In this document: positions 5,443-41,667 of the stretch, in pieces
Layout: every line of letters starts with the position of its first letter
Position numbering within the stretch: position 1 is the stretch's first letter
DNA from: Acutalibacteraceae bacterium
Lineage (GTDB): Bacteria; Bacillota; Clostridia; Oscillospirales; Acutalibacteraceae
Length of the DNA: 64,000 bases
Assembly: GCA_045536815.1 (NCBI GenBank)
Contig: JAZSOH010000025.1
Span: 1-64,000 of the forward strand
Reading direction: 5' to 3'
The notes under the pieces: generated by a model
Databases searched by the model: none
What the model saw: the letters and a program-made list of their open reading frames with translations, nothing else
Told to the model about the DNA's origin: nothing
Translations under genes and position numbers: made by a program

Positions 5443-7455
5443 TTAGTGAGTTCTAAAATCGAGCTTGCCGAGAGGATATTCTTTTTCGACCATTTTTGCG
5501 AGTTCGGCAGTATCGGTAATGCCTGTTTTCTCGCTCAAAATGTGGCTGTAAAGAGTAATCCAAAGGTCAGAAAGGTCGGTGTCTGCCTCTTTCATATCCG
5601 GCATTTCAAATGAAGGATTAAGAATTTCGGCAGCTTCGTTGTATTTATCAATCTTCATAAGCGCAGATGCAAGATAAAGCTTGATACGACCGTCTTCGCT
5701 CATCTCTTTTGGAAGGGTGGCATATGTATCAATCCATTTCTGATACTCGCCCGCTGCAAGATAGGTTGTGGCGGTATCAAGCACGATGCTTCTGCAGTTA
5801 TTATTGATTTTAATTGCAGCTTCCATATATTTAACCGCTTTTTGTACGTCACCAAGTTCGTTACGCCAAATCATAGCGAGGTTACGGTTAACCCAAGCAG
5901 TTTCTTTAGTAGCCAAAGACTCTTCGAAGTATTTCTTGGCTTCGTCGAGAGCACCGTTTGCGTATTTCATAACGCCAAGGTGCATAAGGGAATACCAGTT
6001 GCGGTTTTCTTTATTCTCTAAGGCTTTTTCGAGTTTTTCTGCCCAAGCCTTGTCAACAAGGTAGCCTTCGGGAGCATAGGAGGTATCACGCTCAAGAGTA
6101 GCGCCGGTATCTAAAAGAAGCTGCCATTCTCTTTGAACTTCGGTCATTGAGAATTCGGGGAATTCAAACCAGTCGGAAATAGAAGGCTCGTTATTTTCGG
6201 CTCTTCTAAGATTTTCAAGAGCGCCCCAACCGGAGCCTGTGTTGATAAACTCACCCGGCTCGGCAGTTACAAGCTTGGCGGCCTCGAGGGTATTTTCCAT
6301 ACCGTTTTCGAAAATCTTTTCCATTGAAGCATCTGCTTCGTCAATAGCGCCAAACCAGTCGCCGTGGATTTTTTCCTTATCGGTGCTAATTGCGCCGTAG
6401 CCTTCAACCCAACTCCAAACGTCGCCTGCGGGCATAGGAATATGCTCAAGCTGTGTATGAGCAAGGCCGGCCTGAATTTCTACATAGCCGTCGTTAGTGC
6501 CGTCGGAAAGGAACTGATTCCAGTTACGTCCGCCGCCGCTTTGACCCCAAATAAAGAGTTTTCTACCAATAAGCTCTTTGGTGGAACACTGTAAAAGACC
6601 ATAGCCTTCATCATCAACGGCCACAATCCACTTTTTACTGCTTCTCGGAACATCAAAGAAGAAGTCAAGCGAACGGCCAAAGTTTGCGGGATAGCTAACG
6701 TCGGCATCAAATCCGTCGGGAAGTTTTCTCTTATCAAGTGTATAATGGTTGTTGCCGAAGAAGTTAATGAATGTATCACTTGCGGGGGCAACAACACGAG
6801 TTTTCTTAACCTCGGGAACTGCAATGTTTGACCACCAATACATCCAAACCTCTTTACCTGTGCGGTTTTCGATACGTGGCCTTATGTATAGCATTTTAGA
6901 ATCTTCAGGAAGCCAAGCATCATAACCGTATGCGCAACCACGGATACGCTCATACTCATAAATTCTAACACCTTCGCTGCCGTCAGACATCTTAAGCTTT
7001 CTTGCAAAAATAGAATCACAAGTGAAAGGATTGTGACCTTTAATTGAAACGTTGAATTCAACACCGCCGCTAAACCAAGCATTACGAAGAGCAAGGTTGC
7101 CGGGTTGGAAAACGGGGTTTCTATACAAAAGTTCTCTTTCTTTTTCTTTATCCCAAAGGGACCAAAGTCTACCACCGAGCTCGGGCAAAATAACAGCCTT
7201 TAAATATTTGTTTTCTAAAACAACAGCGCGGTAAACCTTATCTTTACGGTTTCTATCATAACCGTTTTGTTCACGGTAGGGAAGTAGAGTTGGAATCATA
7301 CCGTCACCGATATAACGCTTATCCTCTTCGGGAATAGCATCGGTAACTTCAATCTTAGCGTGAATATATGCATTGTTTTTAATATCGGGAAGTGGGTTCT
7401 CTTCACCCATACCCGCAGAAGGGATTACGTATGGTTCAACGTAACATTTTGACAT
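5443..7455 (-). CDS. DUF5107-like protein with C-terminal TPR repeats
   Basis: 670 aa. Large N-terminal domain plus C-terminal TPR-like helical repeats. Likely start is MSKCYV with an upstream GAAAGGAA RBS; the longer ORF runs to 7485. Confidence 0.65.
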   Translation of the reverse strand: MSKCYVEPYVIPSAGMGEENPLPDIKNNAYIHAKIEVTDAIPEEDKRYIGDGMIPTLLPYREQNGYDRNRKDKVYRAVVLENKYLKAVILPELGGRLWSLWDKEKERELLYRNPVFQPGNLALRNAWFSGGVEFNVSIKGHNPFTCDSIFARKLKMSDGSEGVRIYEYERIRGCAYGYDAWLPEDSKMLYIRPRIENRTGKEVWMYWWSNIAVPEVKKTRVVAPASDTFINFFGNNHYTLDKRKLPDGFDADVSYPANFGRSLDFFFDVPRSSKKWIVAVDDEGYGLLQCSTKELIGRKLFIWGQSGGGRNWNQFLSDGTNDGYVEIQAGLAHTQLEHIPMPAGDVWSWVEGYGAISTDKEKIHGDWFGAIDEADASMEKIFENGMENTLEAAKLVTAEPGEFINTGSGWGALENLRRAENNEPSISDWFEFPEFSMTEVQREWQLLLDTGATLERDTSYAPEGYLVDKAWAEKLEKALENKENRNWYSLMHLGVMKYANGALDEAKKYFEESLATKETAWVNRNLAMIWRNELGDVQKAVKYMEAAIKINNNCRSIVLDTATTYLAAGEYQKWIDTYATLPKEMSEDGRIKLYLASALMKIDKYNEAAEILNPSFEMPDMKEADTDLSDLWITLYSHILSEKTGITDTAELAKMVEKEYPLGKLDFRTH

Positions 7456-13103: not shown

Positions 13104-14303
13104 ATGAAAGTTTTGCAACTTAATTCCGTTTGCGGAAAGGGTAGTACAGGGCGAATTGCTACCGATATTTATGACCTGTTACTTTCAAAGGGCGATGAGT
13201 GTTTAATTGCCTATGGTAGAGACTCGGCACCAGAGGGTGTAAATTCCTATAAGTTTAATACTGACCTTGGTGTAAAGCTTCATGGCGTTATTTCAAGAAT
13301 GAATGATAGGCAGGGTTTTCTTTCAAACTGTGCCACAAAAAAACTTATAGAAAAAATAACTGAGTACAGTCCTGATATTATTCATCTTCACAATATTCAT
13401 GGTTACTATCTTAACATAAGGCTATTGTTTCCGTTTTTGGCAAAATATAATAAGCCTATAGTTTGGACCCTTCACGACTGTTGGGCAGTTACAGGACACT
13501 GTGCATACTTTTCTTTTGCCGGGTGTGATAGGTGGAAAGAAGTTTGCGATAATTGTCCCCAAAAAAGAAGCTATCCTGCAAGTATTTTGCTTGATAATTC
13601 GTTCAAAAACCATAAGGAAAAGAAAGAACTTTTCCAAATGCCGAATAATATAACATTGGTAACTCCTTCCCATTGGCTTAAAGGCGTAATAAAGGAAAGC
13701 TTTTTATCTAAATATCCTGTAAAAACTATCTATAACGGAATTGATTTAGATATTTTTAAACCAACCAAAAGCGACATGCTTAAAAAGCTAGGCGCCGAGG
13801 GTAAAAAGGTCATTTTGGGTGTCGCTAATATTTGGGAAAAACGAAAAGGTTTTGAAGATTTTTTGAAACTGAGCAAGTTCATTTCGGATGAATATATTAT
13901 TGTTTTGGTAGGTCTTAGCGAAAATCAAATTTCTATGTTGCCGAAAAACATAATAGGAATAAAACGTACCGAAAATATTGAGGAGCTTGTTAAAATTTAT
14001 TCGGCTGCCGAGGTTTACGTTAATACAAGTGTTGAGGAAACTATGGGGCTTACAACTGTTGAAGCTATGGCCTGTGGCACGCCCGCTATCGTTTATGATA
14101 AAACCGCCGTTCCGGAAATTGTTAGCGATAAGAGCGGAGTTGTTGTGAATGCGGGGGATATAGAAGGGCTTTATAAAGCTATTCAAAATATAAATATAAA
14201 AAGCGATGACTGTATAAATCGTGCAAAAGAGTTTGAGAAGAATATGCAGTATGGTGAATATTATAGCTTGTATAAAGAGATTTTATCTGAAAAGGGTGAG
14301 TAG
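13104..14303 (+). CDS. GT4-family glycosyltransferase
   Basis: 399 aa GT-B protein (…TMGLTTVEAMACGTPAIVYD…). Confidence 0.75.
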   Translation: MKVLQLNSVCGKGSTGRIATDIYDLLLSKGDECLIAYGRDSAPEGVNSYKFNTDLGVKLHGVISRMNDRQGFLSNCATKKLIEKITEYSPDIIHLHNIHGYYLNIRLLFPFLAKYNKPIVWTLHDCWAVTGHCAYFSFAGCDRWKEVCDNCPQKRSYPASILLDNSFKNHKEKKELFQMPNNITLVTPSHWLKGVIKESFLSKYPVKTIYNGIDLDIFKPTKSDMLKKLGAEGKKVILGVANIWEKRKGFEDFLKLSKFISDEYIIVLVGLSENQISMLPKNIIGIKRTENIEELVKIYSAAEVYVNTSVEETMGLTTVEAMACGTPAIVYDKTAVPEIVSDKSGVVVNAGDIEGLYKAIQNINIKSDDCINRAKEFEKNMQYGEYYSLYKEILSEKGE

Positions 14304-21965: not shown

Positions 21966-22322
21966 AATTACAACCCAATTATATCATAAGCGTAAGGTAT
22001 TTCAAGCATATATGCACAAAAATGTATGTTTTCAAGAAAAAAATATACATTAATGTGAACTAACTAAGCCACATTAAAAGGTCGAAGAAGATTTAATTGT
22101 AAATATCAACGATTATCGGCAGAGCATAACATATATCTATAAAATTTTCAAGGATTTTAGGTAACAGAAAAAGTTTTTGCGCTAGTTGGAAAAGTAAGTG
22201 TACAGTGATAAATAATAAAACTCATGTTGTTACATTTTTAAAAATATGCAAGTCAAAAATTGCGTAATTTGACAACTAAAAATTCCCCTTTAAAAAAACT
22301 AAAAAACTTTCAAAAAAGCACT

Positions 22323-22351
22323 TGACACACCATAGGTTTTGTGTTATTATA
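22323..22351 (+). promoter_or_regulatory. promoter for tRNA genes
   Basis: TTGACA - 17 bp - TATTAT, just upstream of tRNA-Thr. Confidence 0.5.
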
Positions 22352-22369
22352 ATTGGGCGCCGTAAAAAT

Positions 22370-22445
22370 GCTGGTGTAGCTCAGTTGGTAGAGCAGCTGA
22401 TTTGTAATCAGCAGGTCGGGGGTTCAAGTCCGTCCACCAGCTCCA
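22370..22445 (+). tRNA. tRNA-Thr (anticodon TGT)
   Basis: Cloverleaf read by hand. Acceptor GCTGGTG/CACCAGC. Anticodon loop tTTGTAa. T-loop TTCAAGT. Encoded CCA. One G-G mismatch in the T-stem. Confidence 0.85.
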
Positions 22446-22604
22446 TTTTTTAGGTTCCGTAAAAACGGACTTGAAGCCTAAGAGGGTGAGCATCGTAAAT
22501 AAAACATCATGGTATGATGTTTTTAGATGCGAAGTGTGAAGACGGGTACTGTTTGCTACGGCAAACGGTCGTCGAGCACGGCAAACTTTCGAAAGAAAGG
22601 TTGC

Positions 22605-22650
22605 GTCCGTCCACCAGCTCCATTTTGTTAAGTTCCGTAAAAACGGACTT
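22605..22650 (+). repeat. direct repeat of tRNA-Thr 3' end plus downstream hairpin (duplicate of 22424-22470)
   Basis: gtccgtccaccagctccatttt then ttccgtaaaaacggactt recur 180 bp downstream of the tRNA. Confidence 0.8.
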
Positions 22651-22671
22651 GGAATGCGGTAAATTTAATAT

Positions 22672-22756
22672 GGGAGTGTTCCCGAGTGGCCAAAGGGGGC
22701 AGACTGTAAATCTGTTGTCTTCGACTTCGGTGGTTCGAATCCACCCGCTCCCACCA
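22672..22756 (+). tRNA. tRNA-Tyr (anticodon GTA)
   Basis: Acceptor GGGAGTG/CGCTCCC. Anticodon loop cTGTAaa. Long variable arm. T-arm GGTGGTTCGAATCCACC. Encoded CCA. Confidence 0.9.
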
Positions 22757-22760
22757 AAAC

Positions 22761-22795
22761 AAAAAACCGACCAAAAGGTCGGTTTTTTGTTTTGT
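22761..22795 (+). terminator. rho-independent terminator after tRNA-Tyr
   Basis: aaaaaaccgacc-aaaa-ggtcggtttttt. Confidence 0.75.
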
Positions 22796-22967
22796 GGCAG
22801 AAAGGGTGAGATGAGAACCACCGAAGGTGGTGTACGTCGAAGCAGCCCAAAAGCCGCGATAGGCTTTTGGGACTGTGAAGTCTCGAGCAACGCAGATTTT
22901 TCGCAACCGCTCGGAGTGGTCGAAAAATCAAGGGGCGCAGAGTATCCACCCGCTCCCACCAAAAAAT
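22789..22967 (+). repeat. ~180-bp element copy 1, ending with a 19-bp copy of the tRNA-Tyr 3' end (atccacccgctcccacca)
   Basis: Near-identical to 25491-25670 (only 2 mismatches seen). Internal hairpins (cccaaaagcc/ggcttttggg). Followed by its own terminator. Confidence 0.85.
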
Positions 22968-22993
22968 CCAAGTCTTCGGACTTGGATTTTTTT
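22962..22993 (+). terminator. rho-independent terminator after repeat copy 1
   Basis: aaaaaatccaagtc-ttcg-gacttggattttttt. Confidence 0.8.
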
Positions 22994-23107
22994 ATCCATT
23001 GCGAAAGCAATGGCATATCATCAACGATAGCGTTGCTATCGTTGTATCTCATCAGTCCGTCAGAACTGTATATCATCACGCAAAGCGTGTATCAAAAAAC
23101 TTTCGCA

Positions 23108-23185
23108 ATGATGATATACAAAACTTCGTTTTGATGATATGCAATTTCTTCAAAATTGATGATATACAATGCTTCGCATTGATTT
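23108..23185 (+). repeat. array of TTGATGATATRCAA boxes separated by short variable hairpins
   Basis: Boxes at 23109-23121, 23131-23144 and 23156-23169, plus a partial box at 23179. The CAA…TTG box edges pair across spacers with ttc-type loops. Confidence 0.75.
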
Positions 23186-23207
23186 GTTTGTGAATTTATG
23201 CTATAAT
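23179..23207 (+). promoter_or_regulatory. promoter downstream of the box array
   Basis: TTGATT - 17 bp - TATAAT. Confidence 0.5.
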
Positions 23208-23228
23208 TACCACATAGGAAGTGAGATA

Positions 23229-23426
23229 ATGCCCAAGAATTATTTGCTTGTTTATTCAGAACAACTTGCAACGGATGTTGAGTTGCTATGTCAGAGGATA
23301 AAAGCACCGTCTAATACAATCTTTCAAATTCGTAAAAGTTCAAGCAGCGTTTATGCAAATATTCGAGAAGCAAACTACGGGCAAAGTAAGTCTGATATGC
23401 CGCCCATTCCAATCACAAACGAATAA
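23229..23426 (+). pseudogene. truncated four-helix-bundle (TIGR02436 / Avd-like) protein gene
   Basis: 65 aa. Aligns with the N-terminal half of the 41317-41667 product (…LC.RI…Q..KS.SS..ANI.E..YGQS.SD), then diverges and stops. The C-terminal helices are missing. Confidence 0.5.
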
Positions 23427-23452
23427 TGGGCGTATAACTGGAGGAAATACAT

Positions 23453-25321
23453 ATGAAATGTAATAAATGTGGAACAGAACTACCAAAAGGTGCAAAATTC
23501 TGCTCTAATTGTGGCCATAAAACCGAAACTAAACAACAGGAAATAGTGGTTAATGTAGAAAATACAGCTACCAAAACAAATGATCCTGTTGTGGAAACTC
23601 AAAAGAAAGAAACGATAGTAGATAAAGCAAAGGAAAAAGGTATTTCTTTTTGGAAACAGCGTAGTCGCCTTGGCAAACTTGCAACCATATCATTAGTCTT
23701 ATTCTCACTCTTTGCTTTCATTGCTTTGGTTTCTGGAAAAGTCGGTGCGGTTATAGTTTCGCTTTTGGCGATCGGACTTACTGTTGTCGGAATACTGATG
23801 AAACGACAAGTTATAAAGGTAAAAAAGACATGGCTTCCGCTACTATCTATAATCCTCTCATTTGTGCTTGTTTTACCCTTTTTTTCATTCTTTGGTTCGG
23901 ATGAGTCTGGTCGAGAAAAGTATAATTGGAATGAAGTTGTATTAGCCGATATCTTACCACAGCCGGTTTCTCCCTATGGCGAAATAATCACAAACTCTGA
24001 AGATTATCTCTCTATGGATATAACCGAAACAACTCAAGATCAATATAAGGATTACATCGCAGCTTGTGAAGCAAAAGGTTTCACCATAGATAAGGAATCC
24101 TCCGATAGCAATTTCTCTGTATTTAACGAAACTGGATATAAACTGTCATTGAGTTATTATGATTATAGCAGTGAGATGCATATCAATGTTGACTCTGCTA
24201 TGGAGACGGAAACAATAACTTGGCCAGAAACTGAAATGGCAAAGTTATTGCCTGTTCCGAAATCTACCACTGGTAAGATTCAAAGTAATGACGAAGATGG
24301 GTTCACTGTTTATATTGGCGCTACATCCATCGAGAACTACAATGCCTATGTAAAGTATTGTGAAGAAAAAGGATTTACTGTTGATGCCCAAAAAGATGAT
24401 AAGCATTACACTGCAAAAAATGCTGAGTCTTATAAACTGACAGTTAATTATGAAGGAAATAATGTTATTTATATCTCAATCACAGAACCCGAATTCAAAA
24501 TTAATATCGAAGTTGAATGTGTTGAGAATTGGGTATTTAGCAAATATGATGTTGATGTCAGCATAGATGATATGTTCGAAGGAACTATCACTCATGGCGA
24601 TACCGAAACATTCGAAACTGTTCTTAAACGAGGAAATCATACAATCTCCTTTGAGAGCGCAGATGATGATACCTTGGATGGAAAGGTTGAAATGAATGTT
24701 TCGAAAGATGAAACCATCAAGCTGAAGATATCTTGTTCAAGCTCTGGCGTTGATGTTGAGGTTGTCTCTGGCACAACTGCTGAAGATGCTGAAAAAGCAA
24801 GGAATATGGCAGGTGCTCCAGATGTATGGACAAACCTATTAGAGAAACATTATGAAGAAGTTAAAAAGCAATTTGAAGATGCTGGATTTACTAATGTTAC
24901 CTGCGTAGCACACGAAATCGACTATGATGAGAACAATGTCTTTGAAGGAAGTGTAGTTAATATCGCCATTGGCGAAGATGGTGACATCTGCACATTTGAA
25001 AAAGGCGAACAATGGGAAAAAGATATTAAGATCAGAATAGATTATCGTGTGAAACCTGCTAAAGAAGAAACTACTACACCACCAAGCAATGAAACAGAAA
25101 CTCCTTCCCAATCTCAAGATAACGATGATAATTCAGGTGGAAACACAGGAGTTACCGTCCCCGATGAAGAAGAAAGTGAAGGGGATTTGGTGTGGGTTCC
25201 TACAAACGGCGGCACCAAATATCATTCAAGAGCAGGTTGTAGCAATATGAAAGATCCGAAACAAGTATCCAAAGAAACCGCCGAAGCAAATGGCTATACT
25301 CCCTGTAAGAGATGCCACTAA
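23453..25321 (+). CDS. membrane protein with N-terminal zinc ribbon, two tandem extracellular ~95-aa repeats and C-terminal Cys/His cluster
   Basis: CNKCGTELPKGAKFCSNCGH zinc ribbon, then 3 TM helices. Repeats DQYKDYIAACEAKGFTIDKE and ENYNAYVKYCEEKGFTVDAQK. C-terminal YHSRAGCSNM…GYTPCKRCH. Confidence 0.7.
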   Translation: MKCNKCGTELPKGAKFCSNCGHKTETKQQEIVVNVENTATKTNDPVVETQKKETIVDKAKEKGISFWKQRSRLGKLATISLVLFSLFAFIALVSGKVGAVIVSLLAIGLTVVGILMKRQVIKVKKTWLPLLSIILSFVLVLPFFSFFGSDESGREKYNWNEVVLADILPQPVSPYGEIITNSEDYLSMDITETTQDQYKDYIAACEAKGFTIDKESSDSNFSVFNETGYKLSLSYYDYSSEMHINVDSAMETETITWPETEMAKLLPVPKSTTGKIQSNDEDGFTVYIGATSIENYNAYVKYCEEKGFTVDAQKDDKHYTAKNAESYKLTVNYEGNNVIYISITEPEFKINIEVECVENWVFSKYDVDVSIDDMFEGTITHGDTETFETVLKRGNHTISFESADDDTLDGKVEMNVSKDETIKLKISCSSSGVDVEVVSGTTAEDAEKARNMAGAPDVWTNLLEKHYEEVKKQFEDAGFTNVTCVAHEIDYDENNVFEGSVVNIAIGEDGDICTFEKGEQWEKDIKIRIDYRVKPAKEETTTPPSNETETPSQSQDNDDNSGGNTGVTVPDEEESEGDLVWVPTNGGTKYHSRAGCSNMKDPKQVSKETAEANGYTPCKRCH

Positions 25322-25343
25322 ATAATGCGTAAAACAAAACGGC

Positions 25344-25368
25344 CACCGAGCAATCGGTGGTCGTTTAC
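25344..25368 (+). terminator. possible terminator hairpin
   Basis: ccaccga-gcaa-tcggtgg with a weak U-tract. Confidence 0.35.
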
Positions 25369-25490
25369 TTTAGGAATGTTGTGTTTTGATTAATAATGAT
25401 TATTTGTCGAACAGATAATGTTTTTTTGAAAGAATACTAAAAAATCGATAGTTTTTGCTCTTTTTTCAAAAAACAAAGTGGCATCTAAAT

Positions 25491-25670
25491 GTTTTGTGGC
25501 AGAAAGGGTGAGATGAGAACCACCGAAGGCGGTGTACGTCGAAGCAGCCCAAAAGCCGCGATAGGCTTTTGGGACTGTGAAGTCTCGAGCAACGCAGATT
25601 TTTCGCAACCGCTCGGAGTGGTCGAAAAATCAAGGGGCGGAGAGTATCCACCCGCTCCCACCAAAAAATC
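25491..25670 (+). repeat. ~180-bp element copy 2, ending with the tRNA-Tyr 3'-end copy
   Basis: Direct repeat of 22789-22967. Followed by a different terminator. Confidence 0.85.
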
Positions 25671-25675
25671 GACTT

Positions 25676-25716
25676 GCTTAAAATTCCCGTACTATAGTAC
25701 GGGGATTTTTACTTTT
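25676..25716 (+). terminator. rho-independent terminator after repeat copy 2
   Basis: aaaattcccgtact-atag-tacggggatttttac. Confidence 0.75.
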
Positions 25717-25835
25717 TCTTTTAAGAATGTATTTTCCTAAAAATATGAACTTTCGGCTCAATATGTCCTTGCCTTTTTAGTCTTCCTTTGTTATAATACG
25801 TTAGAAATTATTGCTTAAATTTGAAGGTGATTCTA

Positions 25836-27026
25836 ATGATAAAACAAAAGAATTACAAAAAGACACTTATAGCTTGTTATCTTGGCTTTGTTACACAAGC
25901 AATTACTGCCAATTTTACACCGCTTTTATTTTTAACCTTTAAAAGCAGTTACGCAGTTTCACTTGACAAAATTGCAATGATTCCGTTAGTGTTTTATTTA
26001 ACACAATTACTTATCGACCTTGCTGCCACGAAATTTGCTGATAAAATTGGATATCGTACCTGCGTTATCGTTTCGCAGGTGTTATCGGCCGTAGGCCTTT
26101 TGTTGATGGCAATTTTGCCTGAGATACTACCCGTACCGTTTGCAGGCATTTTAATTTCGGTAGTGCTCTACGCAATAGGAAGCGGTCTGGTTGAGGTTTT
26201 GCTAAGTCCCATTGTTGAAGCGTGTCCCTTTGAAAATAAGGACGGAATGATGAGCTTGTTACATTCGTTCTATTGCTGGGGAGCAATGGGTGTTATTTTA
26301 GGTTCTACGCTCTTCTTTGCATTATTTGGCGTAGAAAATTGGAAGATTCTTACCTTCATTTTGGCACTGGTGCCGCTATATAACACATTTAACTTTGTTA
26401 GTTGTCCTATAGAACAGCTAACGGAGGACGGCAAGAGTATGGGTATCGGCAAACTGCTGAAAACACCGATTTTTTGGCTTATGATATTACTTATGGTCTG
26501 CGCGGGAGCCTCAGAAGCAACTATGACTCAATGGACATCTGCCTTTACTGAAGCCGCTATCGGCGTGTCAAAAACTGTTGGTGATTTGGCAGGCCCTTGT
26601 TTGTTTGCAATGTTTATGGGTATAACCCGTATGCTATATGGAAAGTTCAGTGAAAAGCTTGATTTAACTAAGGTTATGCTTATTTGCGGAATTATGTGTG
26701 CCGGTTGTTATTTGTTGGCTTCACTTTCAAATCTGCCGGGCTTAGGACTTGCCGGTTGTGCTCTTTGCGGTTTGGCGGTTGGTATTATGTGGCCGGGGTC
26801 TATTAGTGTATCTTCTCAGAACTGTCCAAGAGGCGGTACGGCGATGTTTGCATTTTTAGCTTTAGCGGGTGATTTAGGCGCTGCGGTAAGTCCCGCTATG
26901 GTGGGAAGTATTTCTGAAAAGGCAGGCGGTAATCTTAAAACAGGACTGCTTATAGCAACAATATTTCCTATAATTTTGGTTGTTGGACTGATTATTTTAA
27001 GAAGTGTGAAAAAGGATAAAGAATAA
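25836..27026 (+). CDS. MFS transporter
   Basis: About 12 TM helices. RBS GAAGGTGA before the ATG at 25836. The track ORF starts at the TTG at 25821. Confidence 0.8.
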   Translation: MIKQKNYKKTLIACYLGFVTQAITANFTPLLFLTFKSSYAVSLDKIAMIPLVFYLTQLLIDLAATKFADKIGYRTCVIVSQVLSAVGLLLMAILPEILPVPFAGILISVVLYAIGSGLVEVLLSPIVEACPFENKDGMMSLLHSFYCWGAMGVILGSTLFFALFGVENWKILTFILALVPLYNTFNFVSCPIEQLTEDGKSMGIGKLLKTPIFWLMILLMVCAGASEATMTQWTSAFTEAAIGVSKTVGDLAGPCLFAMFMGITRMLYGKFSEKLDLTKVMLICGIMCAGCYLLASLSNLPGLGLAGCALCGLAVGIMWPGSISVSSQNCPRGGTAMFAFLALAGDLGAAVSPAMVGSISEKAGGNLKTGLLIATIFPIILVVGLIILRSVKKDKE

Positions 27027-32152: not shown

Positions 32153-32341
32153 TTACTTAACTTCGCTATTTTCTATTGCATAATCAAGCAAAATGTTTAT
32201 CAGTTCATTCCTGGAACGGTTGGTTTGCTCTGCTAATTTATCTAGTTTAACGACAGTTTCATCCTTTATTCTAATAGAAAAGATTTTATACCCATCCTCA
32301 CCCTTTAAAGATTTTTTATTTATGATGAGTTTTTCTTTCAT
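32153..32341 (-). CDS. ribbon-helix-helix (CopG/Arc-like) small DNA-binding protein
   Basis: 62 aa. …KIFSIRIKDETVVKLDKLAEQTNRSRNELINILLDYA RHH pattern. Confidence 0.5.
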   Translation of the reverse strand: MKEKLIINKKSLKGEDGYKIFSIRIKDETVVKLDKLAEQTNRSRNELINILLDYAIENSEVK

Positions 32342-32429
32342 ACAAAATCACCTCACAAATATTATGCCTTGACAAATGTTATAAATATATGTTATAATTT
32401 GTAACATAAAATCGAAAGGAGGAGAATTT

Positions 32430-32876
32430 ATGAAAAAAGTTTTGGTAATGATGATGTTGCTGCTAGTAATTACAGTGACGATGTCTGCTTGTGTTGGGGA
32501 GGATGAGGATTTTCAGGAACCCGAAGTATCAAGTGAAGAAGCAACTGAAAACGAAGAAGCTCTACAAGAGTCTGAAGATGATTCGAAAGAAACAGAAGAC
32601 GCTGCAGGTTCTGAGGAGTTGAATTCTGAGTTCAAAGCGGCAATGGATAGCTACGAAAATTTTATGGATGAGTACATTACTTTTATGAAAAAGTATAAAG
32701 CTAATCCAACAGATTTAGGTCTACTTACCGATTATACTGAGTATATGAGCAAATATGCCGAGTTTGTTGAAGATTTTGGTACATGGGAAGATAAAGACCT
32801 CAGCTCATCGGAACTTGCATACTACGTTGAAGTACAGGCGAGAGTTAGTAAGAAGTTGCTAGAAGTAGCAGAATAA
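32430..32876 (+). CDS. acidic lipoprotein, hypothetical
   Basis: Lipobox MSAC. Glu/Asp-rich linker. RBS AGGAGG. Confidence 0.55.
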   Translation: MKKVLVMMMLLLVITVTMSACVGEDEDFQEPEVSSEEATENEEALQESEDDSKETEDAAGSEELNSEFKAAMDSYENFMDEYITFMKKYKANPTDLGLLTDYTEYMSKYAEFVEDFGTWEDKDLSSSELAYYVEVQARVSKKLLEVAE

Positions 32877-41280: not shown

Positions 41281-41316
41281 ATGCCTCTATTATATAATAA
41301 TGTAAGAGGTGATTTT

Positions 41317-41667
41317 ATGTCTGAAAGTATTATGTTGAATAAGGCGAAAGAACTTGCCGTAAAGGTTATAAAACTTTGCCGTATTATAAGGGAAAAGGAA
41401 AGAGAAACAGTTTTAACGAATCAGTTGCTTAAATCCGGTACGAGTATAGGCGCTAATATACATGAGTCAAAATATGCTCAAAGCAGTGCTGATTTTGTAC
41501 ATAAAATGCAAATAGCTTTAAAAGAATGTTATGAGAGTGAATATTGGCTTGAGCTTATGAATAAATCCGGATATATAGATGATGTAGAGTATAATGATTT
41601 AAATAACGAGTGTGGGCAAATCCGACGTATGCTTATAAGTTCAATAAACACCTTAAAAAACAAATAG
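41317..41667 (+). CDS. four-helix-bundle protein (TIGR02436 / 23S rRNA intervening-sequence protein family, Avd-like)
   Basis: 116 aa. …KSGTSIGANIHESKYAQS…EYWLEL… family pattern. RBS AGAGGTGA. The longer ORF starts at 41281. Confidence 0.7.
   Translation: MSESIMLNKAKELAVKVIKLCRIIREKERETVLTNQLLKSGTSIGANIHESKYAQSSADFVHKMQIALKECYESEYWLELMNKSGYIDDVEYNDLNNECGQIRRMLISSINTLKNK

Follow-up and report, generated by a model that had tools for sequence, protein, structure and literature searches.

A direct repeat behind tRNA-Tyr in a gut Acutalibacteraceae genome points to an uncatalogued family of structured modules that end in tRNA 3' copies

A tRNA-Thr/tRNA-Tyr operon is found on contig JAZSOH010000025.1 of an Acutalibacteraceae bacterium (assembly GCA_045536815.1), and each of its two tRNA genes is followed by a small structured module, here named X, that ends in a copy of the 3' end of its own tRNA. 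All positions are those of the first 64,000 nt of this contig (the window), and related loci and contigs are denoted by L-numbers. The operon is preceded by a promoter-like site (22322-22350, promoter scan). Behind tRNA-Tyr a 181-nt direct repeat (22788-22968 and 25490-25670; 99% identity according to the repeat finder) brackets a cargo region. The features of the locus are collected in Table 1. tRNA genes are classic landing sites of genomic islands, and the displaced tRNA 3' ends found there are usually taken as passive scars. In X the 'scar' is accompanied by a conserved covarying structure and by a tRNA arm copied in inverted orientation, and such modules lie behind about a quarter of the tRNA genes that we sampled.

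Table 1. Features of the tRNA-Thr/tRNA-Tyr locus (positions in the window)
Feature	Position	Strand	Evidence
tRNA-Thr (TGT), first gene of the tRNA-Thr/tRNA-Tyr operon	22370..22445	+	ARAGORN; Rfam tRNA 67.7 bits
X(Thr) module	22465..22622	+	Direct repeats D6/D8; fold z = -4.4; antisense copy 13/14
tRNA-Tyr (GTA)	22672..22756	+	ARAGORN, Rfam
Terminator 1, perfect 18-bp palindrome beginning in the tRNA-Tyr CCA end	22755..22794	+	Inverted repeat I4, 100% complementary; sequence
X(Tyr)-A, type-1 module	22795..22961	+	Repeat D1/D2; fold z = -5.0; covariance model 173.8 bits; covariation
Terminator 2, TCCAAGTC-TTCG-GACTTGGA then T7	22965..22996	+	Sequence; unlike terminators 1 and 3
Small-hairpin array flanked by ATATCATCA / TGATGATAT, mirror-image order, left part of cargo	23000..23190	.	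Repeats D7, D10, D18, I5, I9, I16, I17
Truncated four-helix-bundle (23S rRNA intervening-sequence protein/Avd-like) fragment, 65 aa	23229..23426	+	Pfam PF05635 (23S_rRNA_IVP), E 8.6e-4, below cut-off
Horizontally transferred cargo core	23393..25494	+	96.7% identity to L213 over 2103 nt; Pfam
X(Tyr)-B, second type-1 copy, tail 25646-25663	25497..25663	+	Direct repeat; covariance model 170.3 bits
Terminator 3, resident flank upstream of the MFS gene	25680..25709	+	Terminator scan; 92% match to L213 9053-9091
MFS transporter gene, chromosomal right flank	25836..27026	+	Pfam MFS_1; same neighbour in L213/L214

The two copies of the 181-nt repeat differ at 22828/25530 (T/C) and 22938/25640 (C/G), and their identity stops sharply at both edges. 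Both terminate in ATCCACCCGCTCCCACCA, which corresponds to the terminal 18 nt of tRNA-Tyr (T loop to CCA). The sequence ATCCACCCGCTCCCACCAAAA is present three times, at the 3' end of tRNA-Tyr (22739-22759) and at 22944-22964 and 25646-25666; an exact 18-21-mer occurring three times in 3 kb is far above chance expectation. A distinct hairpin with a T-run follows each copy (terminators 2 and 3), as read from the sequence, and the terminator scan listed the second only. According to Pfam just two genes lie between the copies, encoding the 65-aa fragment (a weak match) and a 622-aa zinc-ribbon/DUF6591 membrane protein, and no recombinase domain was detected in 48 open reading frames (ORFs) covering most of the window. 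All of this bears out the preliminary description of the locus, which had reported a direct repeat of about 180 bp with two mismatches, each copy ending in the tRNA-Tyr 3' terminus and having its own, different terminator, with only a truncated Avd-like gene and a zinc-ribbon gene in between and no integrase. The module behind tRNA-Thr, which has the same architecture, had been missed.

The descending arm of terminator 1 runs on into an antisense copy of tRNA-Tyr, which is part of X(Tyr)-A. The parts of this module are, in order, the antisense copy GGGTGAGATGAGAACCACCGAAG (22804-22826), a palindromic hairpin, two covarying hairpins and the sense tail ATCCACCCGCTCCCACCA (22944-22961). GGGTGAGATGAGAACCACCGAAG represents the variable arm and T arm of tRNA-Tyr in antisense, with 20 of its 23 nt identical to the reverse complement. 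In general the terminator loop is the centre of a long palindrome whose outer arm is the antisense copy, and at tRNA-Tyr this palindrome is perfect over 18 bp (I4) and then continues imperfectly through GGGTGAGATGAGAACCACCGAAG.

X(Thr) sits inside the operon, between the two tRNA genes (22446-22671). It consists of an antisense copy of the tRNA-Thr T loop and T stem, ACGGACTTGAAGCC (22465-22478), three hairpins, and the sense tail GTCCGTCCACCAGCTCCA (22605-22622). Read onwards from the tRNA, tRNA-Thr is followed by a small hairpin, a 131-nt structured body, and a copy of its own last 18 nt with 28 nt of trailer; the repeat finder reports tail and trailer as 22428-22473 / 22605-22651. A direct repeat is therefore found after tRNA-Thr as after tRNA-Tyr, and both tRNAs of the window carry a module. 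The bodies of X(Tyr) and X(Thr) fold far better than shuffled sequences (z values in Table 1). L209 has X(Thr) at the corresponding place, its three hairpins kept through compensatory changes; the module is not present in L213, L177 and L178, and is reduced to a 5' remnant in L121. That remnant, TAGAGGGTGAGC, was considered as a target motif and rejected, as the comparison with L209 identifies it as a deletion derivative of X(Thr).

The wider occurrence of such modules was surveyed in 80 loci retrieved with the PHP gene beside the window tRNAs (gut Acutalibacteraceae, Oscillospiraceae and unclassified Clostridia metagenome-assembled genomes; best identity 91%). The sample consists of the 26 tRNA genes in these loci, which are present only through their proximity to the PHP gene. 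Five of the 26 have an exact copy of their own last 16 nt at a distance of 127-344 nt downstream, and at least 14 nt of the own 3' end is copied within 450 nt downstream in seven of the 26; an upstream copy of at least 14 nt was found for none of them (0/26). The modules share one order (terminator, antisense T loop/T stem, two or three hairpins, sense 3'-end copy, second terminator) around at least five unrelated bodies. In some modules the antisense copy extends into the 3' strand of the tRNA acceptor; the sense copy begins at T-loop position 56-59 (A58/59 in the generalized module) and ends at the CCA, or already with the T stem. The scores of the antisense copy are 18-45 in loci with X, versus 12-17 in six tRNA loci that lack it. 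Signs of turnover include tandem units (L169 and L210), a nested pair (L212) and truncated extra units (L204, L207 and L212). The module is also polymorphic: L180 carries X and L182 does not, and the sequence that follows the X tail in L180 is the sequence that follows the tRNA in L182.

A pattern specific for the Tyr-type (type-1) body identified eight further copies in metagenome contigs. Seven of the eight sit behind a tRNA gene (Lys, Arg, Tyr or Gln) and its terminator, the L205 copy about 1 kb downstream; the L210 copy lies on a contig without a tRNA, which begins within a preceding X copy. For type-1 bodies behind tRNA-Tyr, -Lys, -Arg and -Gln the tail matches the neighbouring tRNA, and the junction of body and tail is invariably ...CAGAGT/ATCC, in the T loop. 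The body of the window Tyr module is 92% identical to that behind tRNA-Lys in L211, versus 85% for those behind tRNA-Tyr in L205 and L209, and the bodies behind tRNA-Arg in L204 and tRNA-Gln in L212 are 92% identical to each other. Judged from these sequences, the similarity of type-1 bodies cuts across tRNA type. Since the window Tyr and L211 Lys modules also have the terminator stem CCGACC/GGTCGG in common, the unit that is shared and relocated consists of terminator, antisense arm and body. The tRNA-specific parts of the type-1 units vary exactly as their tRNAs do.

The type-1 alignment comprises 12 sequences with 75% mean column identity, from which RNAalifold predicts two long hairpins. 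In the 35 predicted pairs 98.8% of the cells are paired, and nine pairs have changed on both sides. When the partners are slid by 1-3 columns 0-1 double-change pairs are left, and no shuffle matched the observed values. Loops and junctions are near-invariant across the alignment. G-U pairs, confined to the tRNA strand, are frequent in the hairpins and A-C mismatches are rare, so the folded strand is the tRNA strand, as RNA or as single-stranded DNA. X(Tyr)-B has two substitutions at positions that are conserved in all other copies, one of which breaks a pair of the palindromic hairpin and the other of which alters the near-invariant GCGCAGAG; this is consistent with a redundant second copy.

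None of the X types was recognized by Rfam. At the gathering thresholds of Rfam 15 the tRNAs alone pass in the window, a search at E<=10 over 22300-25800 gave nothing meaningful, and on ten related loci the thresholds are reached by tRNAs and a single T-box only. In X neither ARAGORN nor the Rfam tRNA model detects a cloverleaf, both finding the two real tRNAs only, and the tRNA-derived sequence at the 3' end of X(Tyr) is limited to 18 nt. From the sequence evidence, then, the 181-nt repeat belongs to an uncatalogued family of structured modules that lie behind tRNA genes in gut Oscillospirales and end in a tRNA 3' copy. The suggestion in the preliminary description that the repeat might be a repeated small RNA gains from the compensatory changes in the 12-sequence alignment, which reveal a conserved structured module. 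Its further claim that the last 60 nt or so look like a scrambled tRNA-Tyr fails: the Rfam tRNA model has no match there at E<=10, and the string 'ctcggagtgg' quoted for it is a hairpin's covarying tip.

It could be supposed that the repeats are functionless scars, left as decayed ends of prophages or integrative and conjugative elements (ICEs; attR remnants) or produced as a side effect of template switching at the hairpins of terminator and T arm, which would yield a sense/antisense/sense triplication. The position of the antisense copy, as outer arm of a palindrome with the terminator loop at its centre, fits such an origin, as do the direct repeats that take in trailer and terminator (in the window Thr module and in L207) and the truncated extra units in L121, L204, L207 and L212. 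The explanation is nevertheless disfavoured by the covariation and is, in our judgement, very improbable: the bodies are 80-92% identical between distant hosts with their helices kept by compensatory changes, X(Thr) has been kept in place, and scars would not produce one recurring minimal unit behind six to seven different tRNAs.

In the bodies of L193, L180, L169 and L177 the antisense arm and the tail are predicted to form a closing helix of 9-13 bp around the hairpins (z -3.1 to -9.3), leaving an NCCA overhang as in an acceptor/T minihelix. Another possibility is that X is a non-mobile host gene family for small RNAs, co-transcribed with the tRNA and with a functional hairpin body. The acceptor/T-type minihelix with its CCA would then allow RNase P, 3' exonucleases or RNase Z, and the CCA-adding enzyme to define and protect the ends, new copies would arise by duplication of tRNA 3' halves, and the cargo would have come in by plain homologous recombination. 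We consider this rather unlikely, although a good deal agrees with it: the RNA-type covariation and the invariant loops, the closing helices with NCCA overhangs in four body types, the retention of X(Thr) inside a tRNA operon in L209, a TATAAT box 7-8 nt upstream of X in L168 and L211, and the failure to find a recombinase among the window ORFs or beside other X copies. However, the occurrence of one body behind four tRNAs, with similarity that runs across tRNA type, would require repeated targeted relocation. In addition, five copies have partial tails without acceptor or CCA, the type-1 fold leaves the acceptor strand unpaired, and at least five unrelated bodies have the architecture alone in common.

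The core of the cargo in the window contains the end of a leader, the gene for the 622-aa zinc-ribbon/transmembrane/DUF6591 protein (23453-25321), a hairpin (25343-25360), an AT-rich spacer and the right-end motif GGCATCTAAAT (25480-25490). Homologues of the 622-aa protein led to L213 and L214, where tRNA-Thr, tRNA-Tyr, cargo, MFS gene and sulfate permease gene follow each other in the same order as in the window, and where the cargo locus is without any X module. At the nucleotide level the 622-aa gene is 97.1% identical between the window and L213, versus 74.8% for the adjoining MFS gene (tRNA-Tyr: 100%). It follows from these values that the cassette came to the same site by horizontal transfer. 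Terminator 3 is also found in L213, immediately 3' of the cargo. A homologue with 91% amino-acid identity (P0004) is likewise located behind tRNA-Tyr in L215, where inverted GGCATCTAAAT motifs delimit it and relaxase, NikA and HTH_17 genes come after it; no integrase was found there within 7 kb.

Remoter homologues of the cargo protein are found in conjugative or defence-rich islands. Homologues (L215 9067-11700, L218, L233 and L234) usually cluster with double-zinc-ribbon proteins and a Band_7_1/GYF_2 protein, within islands that bear relaxase, TraG, restriction, AbiEii or RloB genes, and the family has the appearance of an accessory mobile-element module. The motif GGCATCTAAAT is common to L205, L209 and L213-L217, and the complete right end, GGCATCTAAAT(R)GTTCG(K)AACAGCCA, to L205, L209, L213 and L215; in the window X(Tyr)-B occupies the place of the GTTCG...CCA part. 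A match to the right-end motif was not found in viral contigs. The cargo of L213 and L215 also carries the variable arm and T arm of tRNA-Tyr in antisense (24/25), and the antisense...sense architecture is therefore repeated at a larger scale.

The preliminary description had read the locus as an integrase-less islet or a case of tandem accretion. The horizontal mobility of the cargo, evident from the L213 identities and from L215, supports the islet; the repeats themselves are not random remnants of a decayed prophage but belong to a recurrent and conserved type of module found behind many tRNAs. That reading had also been staked on polymorphism between related genomes and on the existence of other copies of the repeat, and both exist. 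Among the loci compared, a truly empty site, in which tRNA-Tyr is directly followed by the MFS gene, was not found, nor was a circular form. L121 was considered as an empty site for the cargo and rejected, as its contig end matches the Gut-1-type array with which the L213 cargo opens.

With slightly less than even confidence, we favour the interpretation that X modules are recombinase-less units, coding for a structured RNA and anchored in the T loop of the tRNA, that act as landing pads for cassettes. The T loop is universally conserved, and a crossover there would bring a unit consisting of a replacement tRNA 3' end, terminator, antisense arm and body into a tRNA gene. The crossover would restore the tRNA and leave the original 3' end displaced behind the body, as the tail. 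Since no recombinase is carried, the exchange would have to take place in trans or be a homologous one. The body may be transcribed with or after the tRNA, and the antisense arm and the tail would pair and close it with an acceptor/T-like helix with a CCA end. Palindrome (template-switch) correction would keep the antisense arm matched to the neighbouring tRNA.

Once in place, X with its tail would constitute a second copy of the attachment sequence. For the window we envisage a circle (terminator 2, cargo, X, tail) that recombined at the resident tail or X repeat, with terminator 2 as the first sequence of the incoming cassette. The product would read tRNA-Tyr, terminator 1, X(Tyr)-A, tail, terminator 2, cargo, X(Tyr)-B, tail, resident terminator 3 and MFS gene, and the layout of the window fits such an integration at the tail repeat.

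Several observations weigh against this scenario. Deletion between the tail repeats could equally explain the presence or absence of X. Beside the tail just 2-5 nt of the T loop remain, where the attR of a tyrosine recombinase should keep the whole loop. L213 has the cargo but no X module, which shows that X is dispensable for cargo at this site. No recombinase was found beside the other X copies and none was identified in trans, and X had no match in phage, plasmid or viral collections. The closing helix of the type-1 modules is weak and without clear covariation (mean -6.4 kcal/mol for own pairs versus -5.1 kcal/mol for cross pairs), and the tail is only 7-10 nt long in L203, L204, L205, L209 and L211. 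Finally, the very strong conservation of unpaired nucleotides, which the scenario leaves unexplained, points to a cellular RNA function.

The landing-pad interpretation has a close relative among known systems, as cis-mobilisable elements (CIMEs) and the tandem accretion of integrative elements at tRNA genes have been described (review of integrative mobilisable elements and ICEs, PMC5704250; CIME category of ICEberg 2.0, PMC6323972). Like these, the window has recombinase-less segments between direct repeats that bear the tRNA 3' end (the 18-21-nt tail three times, with the 181-nt repeat bracketing the cargo), stacked units, and a cargo that moves between genomes; presence/absence or transfer at the same site is seen in the identities of cargo and flank, in L213 without X and in the pair L180/L182. 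Unlike them, the X repeat is more than an attachment core, being a conserved covarying structure of 90-180 nt with an antisense tRNA copy, and the minimal unit recurs behind many tRNAs. A parent or helper element with a cognate recombinase was not identified among the window ORFs, beside the other X copies or within 7 kb in L215. Stacked integrase-less units bounded by tRNA 3' ends are thus already known, whereas for a covarying body with an inverted tRNA-arm copy as a recurring minimal unit behind many tRNAs we found no equivalent in the literature.

The T loop is one of the sublocations of integration in tRNA genes in the classification of Williams. This classification has been used in bioRxiv 10.1101/2020.11.02.365908. 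In X the block of identity extends from the T loop to the tRNA end, which is what an element that restores the gene it enters would show; unlike in that class, the T-arm half expected to the left of the crossover is lacking beside the X tail, and it is a structured body that adjoins the final 2-5 nt of the T loop.

Integron attC cassettes have small structure-defined sites with inverted repeats, form arrays behind one anchor, and occur as empty units as well. X shares the structure-defined character, the arrays behind one anchor and the empty units. It could be a folded single-strand DNA recombination site like integron attC or the attP of CTX phage, in which antisense arm and tail rebuild a duplex T-stem/acceptor and X-ended cassettes are inserted serially behind a tRNA that acts as attI. 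The array-like order of tRNA, empty unit and cargo with X would be accounted for in this way, and so would the tandem empty units in L169 and L210, the architecture that is kept over unrelated bodies, and the strand-specific wobble pairs. We nonetheless regard it as improbable: neither IntI nor any other integron-type integrase was found, R''/R' cores (GTTRRRY) are lacking at the junctions, sequence conservation within a type is high, with near-invariant type-1 loops and junctions unlike those of attC sites, the anchor is a tRNA gene, and the L213 cargo is without X.

RNAs with tRNA-like ends are known from viral tRNA-like structures (PMC8127992, PMC7749636), bacterial Y RNAs (PMC4201824) and tmRNA. 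As in these, the 3' end of X resembles a tRNA's acceptor/T half and has a terminal CCA; unlike in these, it is an exact copy of the neighbouring gene and not a convergent mimic, there is no mimic of the D or anticodon arm, and Rfam gives no match. It is possible, if doubtful, that the modules are either a new class that homes to the tRNA T loop (recombinase-less, defined by RNA or single-strand structure, with the T arm copied in both orientations and with cassette arrays) or, equally unexpected, new bacterial small RNAs that borrow the exact acceptor/T end of the neighbouring tRNA for processing by the tRNA-maturation machinery. If mobile, the modules would demonstrate the targeting of tRNA genes without a resident recombinase and the building of cassette arrays there; if cellular RNAs, they would form a new family with an unusual route to tRNA-type ends. 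In either case the ...CAGAGT/ATCC motif with the tail offers an annotation handle for islets in metagenome-assembled genomes of an abundant and poorly studied group of gut bacteria, whose modules are absent from Rfam.

Other known classes gave no better account of X. For a miniature inverted-repeat transposable element (MITE) of the IS200/IS605 type or a TnpB/IscB guide RNA, no tnpA, tnpB or iscB genes are found nearby and there is no Rfam match; in formal terms the 3'-terminal 18 nt might act as a guide. Curated models of small self-cleaving ribozymes and group II domain V had no match at E<=10, and resemblances to GAUGAG and GAAGUC are not kept across the 12 type-1 homologues. Likenesses to hammerhead and hairpin ribozymes, group II domain V, T-box, tmRNA, retron and bridge RNA were set aside, being unsupported by Rfam or by neighbouring genes. 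A coding or leader reading of X was dropped, as long ORFs through X are not conserved (the Thr unit has stops). A type-2 body motif in 14 viral contigs proved to be a coincidence, all representing one near-identical coding region without tRNAs, and the degenerate pattern of the Thr/Tyr pair, AGGGTGAG..CGAAG..GTGAAG, had chance matches only, in viral contigs. Exact look-ups of four window proteins returned no record.

The motif AGGGTGAG itself is enriched in the window, with 8 occurrences observed versus 0.77 expected (sites include 1349, 14293, 29666, 32297 on the minus strand, and 58922). At 14293, 29666 and 32297 it lies at Shine-Dalgarno distance from start codons, and its presence at the 5' end of X may therefore be a coincidence with the antisense T-stem (GGGTG/CACCC).

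The hairpin array to the left in the cargo consists of four to five short hairpins with GAAA, GTT, AAA and TTCG loops, each flanked by ATATCATCA or, as its complement, by TGATGATAT. It lies just upstream of the cargo promoter. Rfam has no match for this array, which may serve as an operator or be of the iteron or origin-like kind. In L213 its position is occupied by two inverted Gut-1 RNA motifs (RF01706; 61.6 and 52 bits) at 6586-6657 (+) and 6678-6759 (-), directly after the tRNA-Tyr terminator, and the contig end of L121 matches the first Gut-1 copy. Gut-1 is thus placed at the edge of a tRNA-Tyr-linked cassette in L213. Like X it is an orphan structured motif of gut metagenomes; its sequence and structure differ, and neither the window X nor the hairpin array matches it.

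Upstream of the 622-aa gene, L213 (6840-6990) and L215 (6800-6960) have a leader of about 90 nt, closed by GGTTGGAAT...ATTCCAACC, which looks riboswitch- or attenuator-like and has no Rfam match at gathering scores. The window retains only the 3' end of this leader (23393-23440), the 5' part being replaced by the Avd-like fragment. An intact 128-aa gene of the same family (23S_rRNA_IVP, Avd-like four-helix bundle; E 4e-28) is present in the window at 41281-41667, and the fragment is 35% identical to the N-terminal half of its product.

The tail is interrupted after ATCCCCGAT in the Lys-linked copies of L211 (9230-9284) and L203 (340-420). It starts again in full 31 nt further on in L211, where a 9-nt duplication flanks the 31-nt insert, which contains a TATAAT sequence; the interrupted tail may represent a further micro-insertion at the boundary of T stem and acceptor.

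A MITE-like family of small repeats, with inverted ends ACTTTTTCACTATTACCTCTTCAC ... GAAGTAATAGTGAATAGTGAA around a hairpin, also adjoins tRNA genes and terminators, namely upstream of tRNA-Arg in L182, at 800-960 in L205, after X in L168 and at 9090-9200 in L213. Finally, the window contains a second DUF6591 gene (32297-32876; 148 aa, E 4e-42), a paralogue of the C-terminal part of the cargo protein, and upstream of it a small gene of about 47 aa that is CopG-like by eye only.

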